Positions 6,439-18,976 of a stretch of DNA of 64,000 nucleotides are shown piece by piece; the first letter of the stretch is position 1; every line of letters starts with the position of its first letter. The position numbers were made by a program, and so were the translations under genes. Under the pieces are notes generated by a model that was not told where the DNA came from, made no database searches, and saw only the letters and a program-made list of their open reading frames with translations. Where the stretch lies: positions 6,888 to 70,887 of the forward strand of contig JALVVU010000007.1 of the NCBI GenBank assembly GCA_027023255.1, in the 5' to 3' direction. The stretch comes from Desulfurococcales archaeon (lineage in GTDB: Archaea; Thermoproteota; Thermoprotei_A; Sulfolobales; NBVN01).

Positions 6439-7422
6439 ATGAGGACCTTAACTAAGTTGAAGGTATCGATGTTGACGACCTTAGCATTCCTTATTGGCTT
6501 ATCAACACTTATACTCACCGCGCTATTTACTTACGTGCTTACCCCCACGGCCGGATTATCGACTGTTCTTGTCCTCTCCTTAGTGTTTGTTATAGGTATA
6601 CATGTGCTTCAGTGGCTTGTGGGTCCGAAGATAATCGAGATGGCATACAACGCTGAGCCAATCATGGGCGGGAGGTATGCATGGGTTGAGGAGTTAATAG
6701 CGCGCATTGCTCGGGCCTCCAACCTAGGTTTCATTCCGAAGGCAATGATAGCCCATGTTGACGTGCCTAACGCGTTTGCTTACGGCAACAGGCTCACCGG
6801 GTACAAGGTAGCTGTTACTGAGGGCTTACTCCGCATAGCACCCCCAGAGGAAGTCGAGGCTGTCTTAGCGCATGAGATAGGCCACATAAAGCATAGGGAC
6901 GTTGAGCTAATGATGGTTATCAGCATTCTTCCGGCACTTATATTCTGGCTTGGGAGAGTACTCATGTACTTTGGCTGGTTTGGCGGCGGGGATAGGGAGG
7001 GTGAAGCATCGATCCTTCCCATCATCGGAGCTGTCCTCATGGGTGTGGCGTTCCTCTTTAACTTCGCCGTACTTTACGTGAGCAGGTTACGGGAGTACTA
7101 CGCAGACGCACACGCCGCCCTAACCGTGCCTGGCGGGGCTAGGAAGCTTCAGCGGGCACTAGCTAGGATACTCGTAGCGAGCGGTGAGTTGAAGGCGTTC
7201 GCGCCCAGTAAGGTCGCGTCCGCGAGTAAGTTTAAGGCATTCTTAATAGCGGATCCTGAGGAGGGTATTGAGGTGCGTGGATACGGCATCATCGATATTG
7301 ATGAGGTTGTTGAGTGGATTAAGTCACAGCCTAGGTTAGTGCCTACCGAGATATTCATGACTCATCCGGACCCGGCGAAGAGGCTGAGGTTCCTAGATAC
7401 GCTTGCCTCGGGAGCTACATGA
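6439..7422 (+). CDS. htpX: HtpX-like M48 zinc metalloprotease, membrane-bound
   Basis: HEIGHIKHRD (HExxH) sits between TM segments. GGTGA (6428-6432) lies 6 nt upstream of the ATG. Confidence 0.85.
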   Translation: MRTLTKLKVSMLTTLAFLIGLSTLILTALFTYVLTPTAGLSTVLVLSLVFVIGIHVLQWLVGPKIIEMAYNAEPIMGGRYAWVEELIARIARASNLGFIPKAMIAHVDVPNAFAYGNRLTGYKVAVTEGLLRIAPPEEVEAVLAHEIGHIKHRDVELMMVISILPALIFWLGRVLMYFGWFGGGDREGEASILPIIGAVLMGVAFLFNFAVLYVSRLREYYADAHAALTVPGGARKLQRALARILVASGELKAFAPSKVASASKFKAFLIADPEEGIEVRGYGIIDIDEVVEWIKSQPRLVPTEIFMTHPDPAKRLRFLDTLASGAT

Positions 7423-14948: not shown

Positions 14949-15131
14949 GTGGTAGCGACGAGAATCGTTACATTCAAACTCCCCGAGAACCTACTGGAAG
15001 AGCTCGACCGATACGCGTTAGTGCACGGGATGAGTAGGTCCGACGTGATAAGGCTCGCCATTCAAAAACTCATTAAAGAGACAGCACGCCCAACGCCTAG
15101 GTACAGAGTAAGGCGAGTAATACTAACGTGA
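14949..15131 (+). CDS. Ribbon-helix-helix (CopG/Arc-like) DNA-binding protein, orphan
   Basis: RIVTFKLPENLLEELDRYALVHGMSRSDVIRLAIQKLI is a classic RHH pattern. No partner toxin ORF follows. Confidence 0.6.
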   Translation: MVATRIVTFKLPENLLEELDRYALVHGMSRSDVIRLAIQKLIKETARPTPRYRVRRVILT

Positions 15132-15651
15132 ACTGTCGATTAAGGTAGACAATCCTATCAGATTACCAAGATGTGTGACCCCTAAATAATTTGGTTAAGC
15201 CAACTTAATCTCGTTCTCCTCTAATGCACTATTCGGGAAGAAATATCCTACTTTCATTATTATATCATCGGTAGTCCTAATCACACGCCTGCACATAACA
15301 CTATACATGCGCCTCGGATAACGTGCCTTTACCTAGAAGCCCTCCCACATACCTCATTGCTTGCAAAGCAAGGTACATCATCGACATCGATATTGAGCCT
15401 GTAGCCGCCACTAAACAAATATCTACCCACAAAACACCAATGATCATAAAAATTCATTTAATAAAAGTTGTAGAGGTGAGAGAAAGCTACATCCTAACAG
15501 TATCAATGAACTAAATAAAATTCATAGAACCCTACAGTGAAAAACTGAGGGAGTCCCTAGTCTAATGCTATTAAGGTGCTCAAGGAAAACAATTAAGCAT
15601 AATGAATACGTTGTACTACTTCTTTGGCGCTTCGTGGATTTATTGTTATAA

Positions 15652-15754
15652 TGGTGGGGCCGCGGGGATTTGAACCCCGGACCACGGGGGTTCCTGCCGT
15701 CTTCCGTGTGAGCGGACCCAAGCCCCGCATTCTCCCAAGCTAAACTACGGCCCC
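15652..15754 (-). tRNA. tRNA-Pro (anticodon UGG) with ~26-nt intron after position 37; CCA encoded
   Basis: Manual fold of the reverse complement: GGGGCCG-TA-GTTT..GAAT-G-CGGGG-CT-TGG-G-[intron TCCGCTCACACGGAAGACGGCAGGAA]-C-CCCCG-TGGTC-CGGGG-TTCAAAT-CCCCG-CGGCCCC-A-CCA. Confidence 0.85.
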
Positions 15755-16883: not shown

Positions 16884-17141
16884 TTAGACTAGAATTATTC
16901 CCTCTGCTTGGCTTAAGCCGCTATCGTCTTCTAAGTAGTCATTGTCGGTGTTAAAATGAACGTTAATTTTCATTTCGCTCTCTATCTCGGCTAGGAATTC
17001 CAAAATTGCTGAACGAACAAGCTCGCTCTTTGAAGGATAATTAAATTTCTTTGCAAATTCTTCAAGCTCCTTGTTCATGCTCAACGGAATTCTAATCGTG
17101 ACTATCCTTCTGCGGCTCTTATTTCCTGCGATGAAAGGCAT
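16884..17141 (-). CDS. Ribbon-helix-helix (CopG-like) transcriptional regulator
   Basis: RRIVTIRIPLSMNKELEEFAKKFNYPSKSELVRSAILEFL. I prefer ATG 17141 (GGTGA 5 nt upstream) over the 116-aa track ORF that starts at 17234. Confidence 0.6.
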   Translation of the reverse strand: MPFIAGNKSRRRIVTIRIPLSMNKELEEFAKKFNYPSKSELVRSAILEFLAEIESEMKINVHFNTDNDYLEDDSGLSQAEGIILV

Positions 17142-17415
17142 AAGCATCACCAAAGAATCAACGCAGTGTTTAGTAATAAAGACTAGGCCTGATGAAATAA
17201 GAGGGAATGACCCAGAACTAACACTGTTAATCAATAATACGTTTGTGAAGCATTCATGATTTAGGGCTACGTATTATTAAGAAATAATACCTTAGGTATT
17301 TGTAACGATTAAGACAATACCGTCTACTCTATAGGTAATACTTTTTGTCTTACTTGATATAAAGATAGAATAAATAAGAACATATACCATTATATCCTAA
17401 TCACTCATATTTTAA

Positions 17416-18765
17416 ATGAGAATGGGTTGGAGGGAGCAGATGAGGAGATATAGTGACTTCCGAAAGGTTAGTGAGGCTCTCTCGGATCTGCTAGTGATAT
17501 CTAAGATTATGTTCTCAGCTAATCTACTCGATATCATCGAGTCACAAGGACCGGTACTCTCTTATGACTCACCACCAAGCACCGTGGTTTTCGTGAGGTT
17601 CGACTATGGTGAGGGAATAGGTTACGTATTACTTTGCTGTAAAGACATGTTAATAGCTACGGCGGCACGTGAGAAGGGTAGGAAGGTCTTTGGCGATGAT
17701 GCTCTGAAACTGATAAGGAATAAGAAGGGTACTTCCTATATTTATAGCATACTGCTTGAGAATCTCCCCGACACACTGAGGTCAAGTGTTGAGAGGGCCG
17801 TTGGTGAATGCAGAGAGTTACATTACCCTGATTCTCTTCTTGGAACTCAACTTTATGGATTGAAGATAGGTAATAACGTATTGGTAAAGACAGAATTTAT
17901 AGTAGTGCTTCCGGCTGAGCTAGATAATCGAAAACAGATACTTGTCCTTCCATCAGATATCTTAGTAGTAAGCAAGGATGGGAAGGCCATACTTTCATCG
18001 CTAGCACTGGACTTTAGTGTCGCGCTAGCTAATGGAGTTGAGGTTTCCGGCCTCTTCATACCTAGGACGGAGTACGGTAGCGTAAACGATCTAGTGGCGG
18101 CACCCCCGTCTCTTGTAATCCCCTGGGCTAGTGCCACTTCCATGGACAACCTCATGAAGCAGGGGAATAAAGATTTTGCTAGAAGCATCCTTAAGAGAGT
18201 GACTCAGTACTTGATACGTGCACACGAGATCGGCGTAGCGCATCTCTGGTTAGATCCGAGGAAGATACTGGTAACGTCGGTTCCGGGTGTAGGGAGTTCC
18301 GTGCAGATATTCATTACTGGGTTCCTAGGAAGGTTCCCTAAGGGACTGATACGATTCGCTAATCCCTTTTATTGCGATCCATACCTCCTCCTAGGCCTTG
18401 AAGGGATACATACTGACGTCTACTCGTTAGGAATGATAGTGTTGGAGACAATGACCGGATCAACTTTAGAGTCGCGCGCAGAGATAGTGCTGGCGTTAAG
18501 GGACGCATTAGTTGGCACACAGCCCAGTGGGGCCAAAGGGAAGTCTGACCTATACTCCCTCATATTCTCTACCGCCCGTAAGGATCCCAGCAAACTTAAA
18601 GACGCGTTTGTCAAGATCATGAAGAATGACACGGTGGTTAGGCGGGATAGAGCTACCCTAGCAAAGGTAAGAGATAAGAAGTTAAGGGATGTGCTTGTAA
18701 GATGCCTCTCATTAGATATTAGTGAGAGGCCAAAGGAGGCTAAGGAATTGTTGAATGTGCTTTAA
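17416..18765 (+). CDS. Eukaryotic-like protein-kinase-fold protein, predicted catalytically dead (pseudokinase), with an unrecognised N-terminal region
   Basis: C-lobe signatures: HEIGVAHLWLDPRKILV (aligns to HRDLKPxNIL), ITGFLG (aligns to DFG), DVYSLGMIVLETMTG (subdomain IX), ERPKEAKELL (subdomain XI). The catalytic D, N and DFG-D positions are substituted. Confidence 0.6.
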   Translation: MRMGWREQMRRYSDFRKVSEALSDLLVISKIMFSANLLDIIESQGPVLSYDSPPSTVVFVRFDYGEGIGYVLLCCKDMLIATAAREKGRKVFGDDALKLIRNKKGTSYIYSILLENLPDTLRSSVERAVGECRELHYPDSLLGTQLYGLKIGNNVLVKTEFIVVLPAELDNRKQILVLPSDILVVSKDGKAILSSLALDFSVALANGVEVSGLFIPRTEYGSVNDLVAAPPSLVIPWASATSMDNLMKQGNKDFARSILKRVTQYLIRAHEIGVAHLWLDPRKILVTSVPGVGSSVQIFITGFLGRFPKGLIRFANPFYCDPYLLLGLEGIHTDVYSLGMIVLETMTGSTLESRAEIVLALRDALVGTQPSGAKGKSDLYSLIFSTARKDPSKLKDAFVKIMKNDTVVRRDRATLAKVRDKKLRDVLVRCLSLDISERPKEAKELLNVL

Positions 18766-18779
18766 TGCTGAATTGTTGA

Positions 18780-18889
18780 TGGTGCGGGGGGTGGGATTCG
18801 AACCCACGCAGGCCTCCGCCAGCGGGTCTCCCCACCTAGCCGGAAAGGTCTTGAGCCCGCCCCCTTTGGCCGAGCTCGGGCACCCCCGC
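18780..18889 (-). tRNA. tRNA-Leu (anticodon CAA), class II long variable arm, ~22-nt intron at 37/38; CCA encoded
   Basis: Reverse complement: GCGGGGG-TG-CCC..GGG-G-GCGGG-CT-CAA-G-[ACCTTTCCGGCTAGGTGGGGAG]-A-CCCGC-TGGCGGAGGCCTGC-GTGGG-TTCGAAT-CCCAC-CCCCCGC-A-CCA. Confidence 0.85.
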
Positions 18890-18976
18890 ACCAAAGAATG
18901 TCGTGTAATGGGATTAATTTGCTTTAACTCTAAACTAGACTGTACATCCACAACTATCACTTAAAGCACCTAAGAG

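Follow-up and report, generated by a model that had tools for sequence, protein, structure and literature searches.

This study concerns a protein-kinase-like gene of a Desulfurococcales archaeon, carried on contig JALVVU010000007.1 (assembly GCA_027023255.1). The analysed stretch covers positions 6,888 to 70,887 of the forward strand, 64,000 nucleotides (nt) in all, and is called the window below; unless stated otherwise, coordinates are those of the window. An initial annotation, made from the sequence alone, had described the open reading frame (ORF) at 17416..18765 (+) as a predicted pseudokinase encoded divergently from a ribbon-helix-helix (RHH) regulator. This ORF of 449 amino acids (aa) is real, and every peptide quoted in that annotation is found in its translation. 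Our data indicate that the gene encodes a pseudokinase and that its pairing with the RHH gene is conserved among related archaea. The two genes and the parts of the pseudokinase are laid out as follows, with residue numbers counted from the Met codon at 17440.

16884..17153, minus strand: divergent RHH gene, 89 aa when read from the TTG at 17153; later ATG codons lie at 17147 and 17141.
17440..18765, plus strand: pseudokinase coding sequence, 441 aa plus stop, with the conserved start MRRY.
17440..17823, plus strand: predicted N-terminal alpha/beta domain (aa 1-128), from an AlphaFold2 (AF2) model with a predicted local distance difference test score (pLDDT) of ~90.
17824..18135, plus strand: predicted kinase N-lobe, degenerate and shortened (aa 129-232), from alignment with PKA and active relatives and from Foldseek.
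17944-17946, plus strand: codon of Val169, aligned with PKA K72, the beta3 (VAIK) Lys.
18136..18762, plus strand: kinase C-lobe (aa 233-441), from Pfam and PDB sequence matches, invariant columns and a pLDDT mostly >85.
18241..18264, plus strand: catalytic-loop remnant HLWLDPRK (aa 268-275), with Trp270, Asp272 and Lys275 invariant.
18319..18330, plus strand: DFG remnant GFLG (aa 294-297), invariant in orthologues.

The ORF was confirmed at 17416-18765, but its first codon is probably not the start of the gene. The in-frame ATG at 17416 adds eight codons, and this extension is retained in the closest relatives only; in the 37-40% identical orthologues at loci L006 and L008 it is out of frame or absent. 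A collection of 5.8 billion proteins held only 12 homologues, each of 441-444 aa and each with the N-terminus MRRY. Because the MRRY start is common to all orthologues and the extension is not kept in the distant ones, the ATG at 17440 is the likelier start. The carriers of the gene are metagenome-assembled Desulfurococcales archaea. Its neighbours in the window include archaeal-type DtdA, a UMP-kinase-like AA_kinase and MeaB, which is consistent with an archaeal origin.

The similarity to protein kinases is faint in the single sequence and becomes clear in the family. The protein alone scored 16.8 bits (E=0.0046) against Pfam Pkinase (PF00069), below the gathering score of 31.7, and a phmmer search of the PDB matched a CaMK at E=8e-5. 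Pkinase was matched by 23 of the 24 aligned sequences, that is by 22 of the 23 family members and by the PKA reference, to which the best E-value (5.5e-75) belongs. A profile of the orthologues gave 1301 matches at E<=1e-3 among 1.84 billion representative proteins; many of these cover the C-lobe region only (positions 225-360) and are evidently ordinary kinases. A word-indexed search with the family profile reached bona fide Ser/Thr kinases of bacteria at E=1e-23; such kinases made up most of its matches, and P0046 was the sole new family member.

Structure prediction extended this picture to the whole protein. A first AF2 model, based on 13 close orthologues, had a pLDDT of 61.8 and was confident in the C-terminal half only, the N-terminal half being poor; it had 302 PDB matches in Foldseek at E<=1e-3. 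This model was replaced by a second one built on the 24-sequence family alignment, which is confident throughout (mean pLDDT 89.8, predicted template-modelling (TM) score 0.72). The second model had 1032 PDB matches at the same threshold, with about 320 columns aligned to kinase domains of 250-270 residues, and the best matches were PknI (target TM-score 0.67) and PknB (0.65) of Mycobacterium tuberculosis. Among the top 50 matches listed for each Foldseek search, all were structures of protein-kinase or pseudokinase domains.

The predicted structure thus confirms a complete bilobal protein-kinase fold, as the initial annotation had claimed, although it changes the extent of the domain. Kinase similarity had been assigned to the C-terminal ~200 aa. 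That assignment is right for the C-lobe, but in the model the kinase domain spans about aa 129-441 and includes the N-lobe, which had been reported as impossible to find and is placed at about aa 129-232. The remark that this part has neither a Gly-rich loop nor a beta3 Lys still holds. The N-lobe is degenerate and some 40-60 residues shorter than in active relatives, with the gap falling between beta3 and beta4/5. Three anchor residues, D326 (PKA D220), R430 (PKA R280) and H268 (the HRD His), are invariant across the whole family, and D313-P314 occupies the position of the APE motif within a family-specific Y-x-D-P motif.

Catalytic residues were mapped by alignment with PKA and 22 family members. 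None of the features of a competent kinase (Gly-rich loop, K72, D166/K168/N171, D184) appears in the aligned sequence. PKA G50/G52/G55 correspond to Leu, Thr and Ile, leaving no Gly-rich loop, and K72 corresponds to Val169, a position that holds Val, Ile or Leu in orthologues. D166, the HRD Asp, is replaced by Trp270, K168 by Asp272, N171 by Lys275, and D184, the DFG Asp, by Gly294, so that DFG becomes GFL. The position of the alphaC Glu aligns tentatively with Ala183, in a region where the alignment is less certain, and no conserved acid is found there. The substitutions that had been read from the single sequence (Trp for the HRD Asp, Lys for the catalytic-loop Asn, Gly for the DFG Asp, and the missing Gly-rich loop and VAIK Lys) are therefore borne out by the PKA alignment. 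They are also fixed: 13 orthologues of 37-97% identity all carry HLWLDPxK and GFLG unchanged, and canonical HRD and DFG motifs are not retained. Such an invariant set of replacement residues has the look of selection, not of drift, and points to a remodelled cleft. PMC10211241 defines a pseudokinase by sequence as lacking at least one of the VAIK Lys, the HRD Asp and the DFG Asp. All three are absent here and the fold is retained, and by this definition the protein is a pseudokinase. It probably no longer phosphorylates any substrate.

The same residues have to be weighed for another kind of activity. An unconventional enzyme could use relocated catalytic residues or perform other chemistry through His268, Asp272, Lys275, Asp313 and Asp191. 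Such an enzyme would fit with replacement residues that are invariant instead of variable and with the conserved charged residues in and around the cleft, and migrated catalytic residues are described for some pseudoenzymes in a review (PMC10211241). On the other hand, the Gly-rich loop has been lost together with all five canonical residues, the N-lobe is shortened and a Trp stands in place of the catalytic base. Searches of Pfam, NCBIfam and PADLOC gave only generic kinase similarity and no family with such a motif set. We regard an unconventional enzyme as quite unlikely.

The initial annotation had also raised the alternative that this copy is a decaying pseudogene. Nei-Gojobori dN/dS was 0.118 between the window and L001, 0.189 between the window and L002, 0.171 between L001 and L002 and 0.072 between L006 and L008, all of these being unsaturated pairs. 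The ratio was below 0.3 in each of the N-terminal domain, the N-lobe and the C-lobe, and the N-terminal domain was the most constrained (0.04-0.13). Values of 0.07-0.19 indicate purifying selection and not a decaying gene. The only point in favour of a decaying pseudogene, or of a kinase resemblance by chance, is the single-sequence Pfam score below the gathering threshold. Against it stand the ORFs, intact and uniform in length across at least 13 genomes or contigs, the low dN/dS, the high-confidence kinase fold and the strong profile E-values to kinases. Decay is ruled out by the dN/dS values together with the intact ORFs, and the combined alternative of decay or chance was rejected, its remaining probability being negligible. 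The prediction of a pseudokinase is supported by the fold model, the fixed substitutions and the purifying selection.

In front of the kinase domain lies a domain of about 130 aa that is common to all family members, including the catalytically intact ones. In the AF2 model it has helices at residues 7-14, 17-26, 86-92 and 111-124 and strands at residues 28-36, 48-55, 59-66, 70-78, 81-84 and 96-105. The N-terminal domains of the clade that contains the window's protein (the query clade) and of the active relatives were aligned by hhalign with 98.3% probability (E=1.4e-14). This region had been compared loosely to DUF4388/PATAN, and this likeness was not reproduced: Pfam scans found no DUF4388/PATAN (PF14332) in the 24 full-length sequences (E<=0.1) or in ten isolated N-terminal domains (E<=10). 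The sole curated match is that of the active relative P0021 to DUF2226 (PF09987), with 26.9 bits against a gathering score of 22 over residues 30-124. In Pfam scans the protein of the window and the ten isolated N-terminal domains had no match to DUF2226. A search of PDB sequences with a profile of the domain gave nothing significant, the best matches being cyanophycin synthase (E=0.07) and the longin domain of YKT6 (E=0.23). The domain resembles DUF2226 through its relative, and DUF2226-like would be a better label than PATAN.

An exhaustive profile search found full-length relatives of 465-530 aa. The family is very small (15 billion proteins gave about five clusters at 50% identity), and as far as could be seen it is restricted to metagenome-assembled genomes of the Desulfurococcales type. 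Among 22 tabulated relatives, 12 keep K72, HxD, K168, N171 and D184. In P0022 and P0046 the change of D166 to Asn is the only replacement; P0016-P0018 have lost D166 and K168, and some of them D184 too; and all five catalytic residues are lost in P0013, P0014, P0015 and the query clade. The family is thus a graded series: at one end are active kinases in operons with vWA and FHA genes, at the other is a fully degenerate form accompanied by an RHH gene and a candidate operator, and partly degenerate forms lie between them. The fully degenerate form descends from, or is sister to, the active kinases of the vWA-FHA operons. Neighbour-joining bootstrap joined the query clade with P0013 at 99-100%. 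The addition of P0014 and P0015 was supported at 83%, and at 46% when the motif columns were left out.

The genomic context follows this series. A divergent orthologous RHH gene lies upstream of the pseudokinase gene in all five fully degenerate lineages, namely the query clade, the 37-40% identical clade (L006/L008), P0013 (L009), P0014 (L010/L011) and P0015 (L017), and the spacer measures about 200-290 bp (197 bp in L017). The pairing is kept despite differences in the other flanking genes, which encode an Opp transporter in L009 and an aminotransferase and a dehydrogenase in L017. The two active relatives examined, P0020 and P0021, are each part of a co-directional vWA-FHA-kinase operon; the loci are unrelated (L012 3401-6521 and L016 2295-5518), and the L012 copy sits amid genes for V-type ATPase subunits. 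The loci of P0016 and P0017 have neither an RHH nor a vWA-FHA context, and that of P0046, the relative with D166 changed to Asn, has no RHH, vWA or FHA neighbour. A search with the family profile found no second kinase in the window.

The divergent RHH neighbour had been noticed before, and it is established by a match of the window's RHH protein to Pfam RHH_1 (24 bits; gathering score 20.5) as well as by its conservation in the five lineages. In the protein the RHH domain comes first, followed by an acidic linker and a hydrophobic C-terminal tail (IILV) that is conserved among the orthologues as IILV, VVLV, VIMV or VIIY. The orthologues share a basic strand RRxIVTIRIP and a helix YPSKSE[LF][IV]R; the L017 copy has diverged and keeps SKSEFIRR. 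The protein remained below the NCBIfam cut-offs for aCcr1_fam (25 bits versus 60) and CdrS (28.4 versus 100).

Several further features of the neighbourhood were observed. The RHH protein is much more conserved than the pseudokinase: in L002 it is identical and the pseudokinase ~85-88% identical, and in L004 the values are ~94% and 66%. A second RHH-like ORF of 60 aa, 'IVTFKLPENLLEELDRYALVHGMSRSDVIRLAIQKLI', lies at 14949-15131 (+), about 2 kb upstream of the RHH-pseudokinase pair, and a GTAATAC sequence at 15117-15123 falls within its 3' end. Another, short RHH_1 gene (59 aa; L017 3032-3211, minus strand) was seen in the P0015 lineage, just beyond the diverged 90-aa RHH-like partner. A DUF711 (PF05167) gene is convergent with and directly downstream of the pseudokinase gene in three degenerate lineages, those of P0013, P0014 and P0015 (L009 6385-7413, L010 1984-2976, L011 1949-2971 and L017 5549-6565); in the clade of the window, a tRNA and UMP kinase take its place.

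The spacer between the two genes was described as 274 bp long and AT-rich. This is correct for 17142-17415 provided that the RHH protein starts at its second ATG, and the GC content of this segment is 30.3%, compared with 48.1% for the window. The spacer and the stretch up to the ATG at 17440 contain the following features.

17233..17278, no strand assigned: perfect 10-bp inverted repeat, AATAATACGT-N26-ACGTATTATT, candidate RHH operator.
17286..17300, no strand assigned: perfect palindrome AATACC-TTA-GGTATT, with a half-site as in the inverted repeat.
17335-17341: an extra GTAATAC site in the spacer.
17390-17397, plus strand: TATA-like TTATATCC, candidate promoter element, conserved among close relatives.
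17410-17417, plus strand: TATA-like TTTTAAAT, candidate promoter element, ~26 nt upstream of the ATG at 17440.
17429-17433, plus strand: GGAGG, candidate translation signal read from the sequence, 6 nt before the ATG at 17440.

The promoter and translation signals at 17390..17433 are tentative assignments; in distant loci, A/T-rich elements precede the conserved ATG by 20-35 nt. Repeated half-sites of this kind are bound by RHH proteins, and 4 of the 14 RTAATAC sites of the window fall within 17234-17341. The pattern TAATAC-N(4-32)-GTATTA occurs once in the window, at this place, where 0.17 occurrences are expected. The TAATAC...GTATTA arrangement is present in the spacer of each of the 11 loci L001-L011, so that four lineages out of five have it, and it is absent from the seven other loci L012-L018. 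In dinucleotide-preserving shuffles of four independent spacers the pattern arose in 0.4-0.8% of trials each (chance 0.004-0.008). The GTA...TAC core of the repeat resembles the aCcr box (PMC13199686). The RHH protein probably binds the repeat. In the L010 spacer, next to P0014, a perfect TGTAATTACA palindrome was also observed at ~336-345, and it equals the aCcr1-box consensus of the RHH cell-cycle repressors of Sulfolobales (PMC13199686).

Two other explanations of the gene pair were weighed. RHH proteins with C-terminal tails are typical of antitoxins, and the locus might be a toxin-antitoxin-like or anti-virus defence pair in which an RHH antitoxin accompanies a kinase-fold effector. The tail of the RHH protein, weak RelB-family matches (15 bits) and weak matches to the defence kinases MADS6, MkoA (25 bits) and PD-T4-6 (25 bits) speak for such a pair. 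However, the genes are divergent and not co-transcribed, the similarity is generic and far below the cut-offs (24 bits versus 460 for MADS6), and the effector would be without catalytic residues. In several lineages, moreover, the locus keeps its place amid housekeeping genes (MeaB, UMP kinase, DtdA) and is not part of a variable island. PADLOC gave no match for the RHH protein. The defence and toxin-antitoxin explanations were rejected on the ground that PADLOC and NCBIfam returned generic kinase matches only, and we consider them very improbable.

Alternatively, the pseudokinase could be a scaffold, a decoy substrate or an allosteric regulator of active DUF2226-kinase paralogues together with FHA and vWA proteins, while the RHH protein would act on transcription only and make no contact with it. 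The closest active relatives have the same N-terminal domain and sit with FHA and vWA genes, and a divergent arrangement with a shared candidate operator is typical of a local regulator and its target. Eukaryotic pseudokinases commonly regulate active paralogues (PMC8141879). Yet no active paralogue, FHA gene or vWA gene lies within the window, and a conserved tail beyond the DNA-binding domain of the RHH protein suggests that it has a protein partner. This alternative is possible, but on the whole we think it unlikely.

On balance we consider it probable that the protein is a non-catalytic descendant of Hanks-type kinases with a DUF2226-like domain, and that it acts in a two-gene module with the RHH protein as a signalling partner independent of phosphorylation. 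Its ancestor would have been a member of a Desulfurococcales family of Hanks-type Ser/Thr kinases with a DUF2226-like N-terminal domain. The bilobal fold would have been kept, while the residues for ATP/Mg binding and phosphotransfer and the Gly-rich loop would have been exchanged for the present set with Val169, Trp270, Asp272, Lys275 and Gly294. The pseudokinase and the divergent RHH transcription factor would form the module across their shared spacer, in which the RHH protein would most likely bind the TAATAC/GTATTA repeat and control one or both genes. The N-terminal domain may sense or dock an input. The kinase-like body would bind another protein and thereby modulate transcription. The most plausible partner would be the RHH protein, contacted at its conserved C-terminal tail, with components of a kinase/FHA/vWA network as the alternative. 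The conserved tail and the invariant remodelled cleft make a direct complex of the pseudokinase and the RHH protein plausible. A more specific form of the module can be imagined, in which the cleft was rebuilt with HLWLDPxK and GFLG to capture the RHH tail or a small ligand, giving a phosphorylation-independent sensor-pseudokinase-RHH switch that evolved from a vWA-FHA-kinase module. We judge this form unlikely; if it were true, Archaea would have their first pseudokinase system with a defined mechanism.

Several points weigh against a non-catalytic two-gene module of this kind. The invariance of the replacement residues could equally mean an unconventional catalytic site. Regulation can keep a divergent gene pair together even when its proteins make no contact. 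The loci all belong to metagenome-assembled genomes from one order, and the synteny may be partly inherited. The fifth lineage (L017) has a diverged RHH gene and only one half-site in its spacer. The repeat was discovered in the same data in which it was tested, which makes the p-values optimistic. Classic archaeal repression uses an operator over the TATA box or the transcription start, whereas here the repeat is separated by 110-160 bp from the candidate TATA element of the pseudokinase gene downstream and by 50-100 bp from the RHH start. A bootstrap of 75%, which falls to 16% without the motif columns, gives no robust support for monophyly of all degenerate forms.

Two RNA-like elements were observed near the pair. 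A tRNA with an intron lies at 18783-18889 (minus strand), 18 nt past the stop codon of the pseudokinase gene; its variable arm is long and its anticodon loop carries an insertion of 25 nt. It scored 39.3 bits with Rfam RF00005 and was missed by ARAGORN. This tRNA accounts for the spurious ORFs at 18712-18964. A sub-threshold Rfam match to transfer-messenger RNA (tmRNA; 33 bits, gathering score 47) was found at 15652-15754 (minus strand), between the ORFs at 15514 and 15809. To our knowledge there is no tmRNA in Archaea, and the match is therefore probably to a further tRNA with an intron or to an element resembling a tRNA.

In eukaryotes pseudokinases have major regulatory roles, and those of bacteria are only now being explored. 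The initial annotation stated that they are hardly described in Archaea. This needs a qualification, since a tree-of-life survey (Kwon et al. 2019, as cited in PMC10211241) counted pseudokinases in ~2% of archaeal proteomes. The statement holds in so far as no characterised archaeal pseudokinase was found in the literature, and the term is absent from the main review on phosphorylation in archaea. What is new here is a family of archaeal pseudokinases that combines a DUF2226-like domain with invariant replacement motifs and that is partnered throughout with an RHH gene and, in most lineages, its candidate operator. The locus is a small, well-defined and testable entry to non-catalytic kinase signalling in archaea, and a functional study of it would give a first handle on the DUF2226-like domain. 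The invariant replacement residues suggest a new function of the cleft, and the locus would allow a study of how a signalling enzyme turns into a non-enzymatic regulator in archaea.

Comparison with known systems shows where this family stands. The protein shares with the Hanks-type kinases PknI and PknB of M. tuberculosis the bilobal fold (target TM-scores of 0.65-0.67) and the equivalents of PKA D220 and R280. However, identity to them is only 13-17%, and unlike them it has no Gly-rich loop and no equivalents of K72, D166, K168, N171 and D184; its N-lobe is shortened and an extra N-terminal domain of 128 aa is present. The intact DUF2226-domain kinases of Desulfurococcales and related archaea (P0020, P0021) are closer, with the same two domains, full-length homology, Y-x-D-P in place of APE and a 'PP' motif. 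They differ in having all catalytic residues and an N-lobe that is ~50-60 aa longer, and they lie in co-directional vWA-FHA-kinase operons that have no RHH gene and no TAATAC repeat. These operons resemble the module of ArnB (vWA) and ArnA (FHA) in Sulfolobus by domain content only (PMC5007285).

Eukaryotic and bacterial pseudokinases without the VAIK Lys, the HRD Asp and the DFG Asp are like the present protein in that the fold is kept, selection is purifying and a non-catalytic role is expected. In the scheme of PMC8141879, pseudokinases that lack all three residues form the class that does not bind nucleotides. The present protein differs from these pseudokinases by its independent origin within an archaeal family, its DUF2226-like partner domain and its coupling to an RHH gene. 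For this coupling there is a precedent in Thermoproteota: in Sulfolobales the kinase aCcrK (ePK2) phosphorylates the RHH repressor aCcr2 and weakens its binding to DNA (PMC13199686). aCcrK is an active kinase, whereas the protein described here cannot be a conventional one, and the RHH protein of the present pair carries a C-terminal extension of 35 aa. Both systems nevertheless link a protein of the kinase family with a small RHH factor, and the GTA..TAC half-sites of the candidate operator are reminiscent of the aCcr box.

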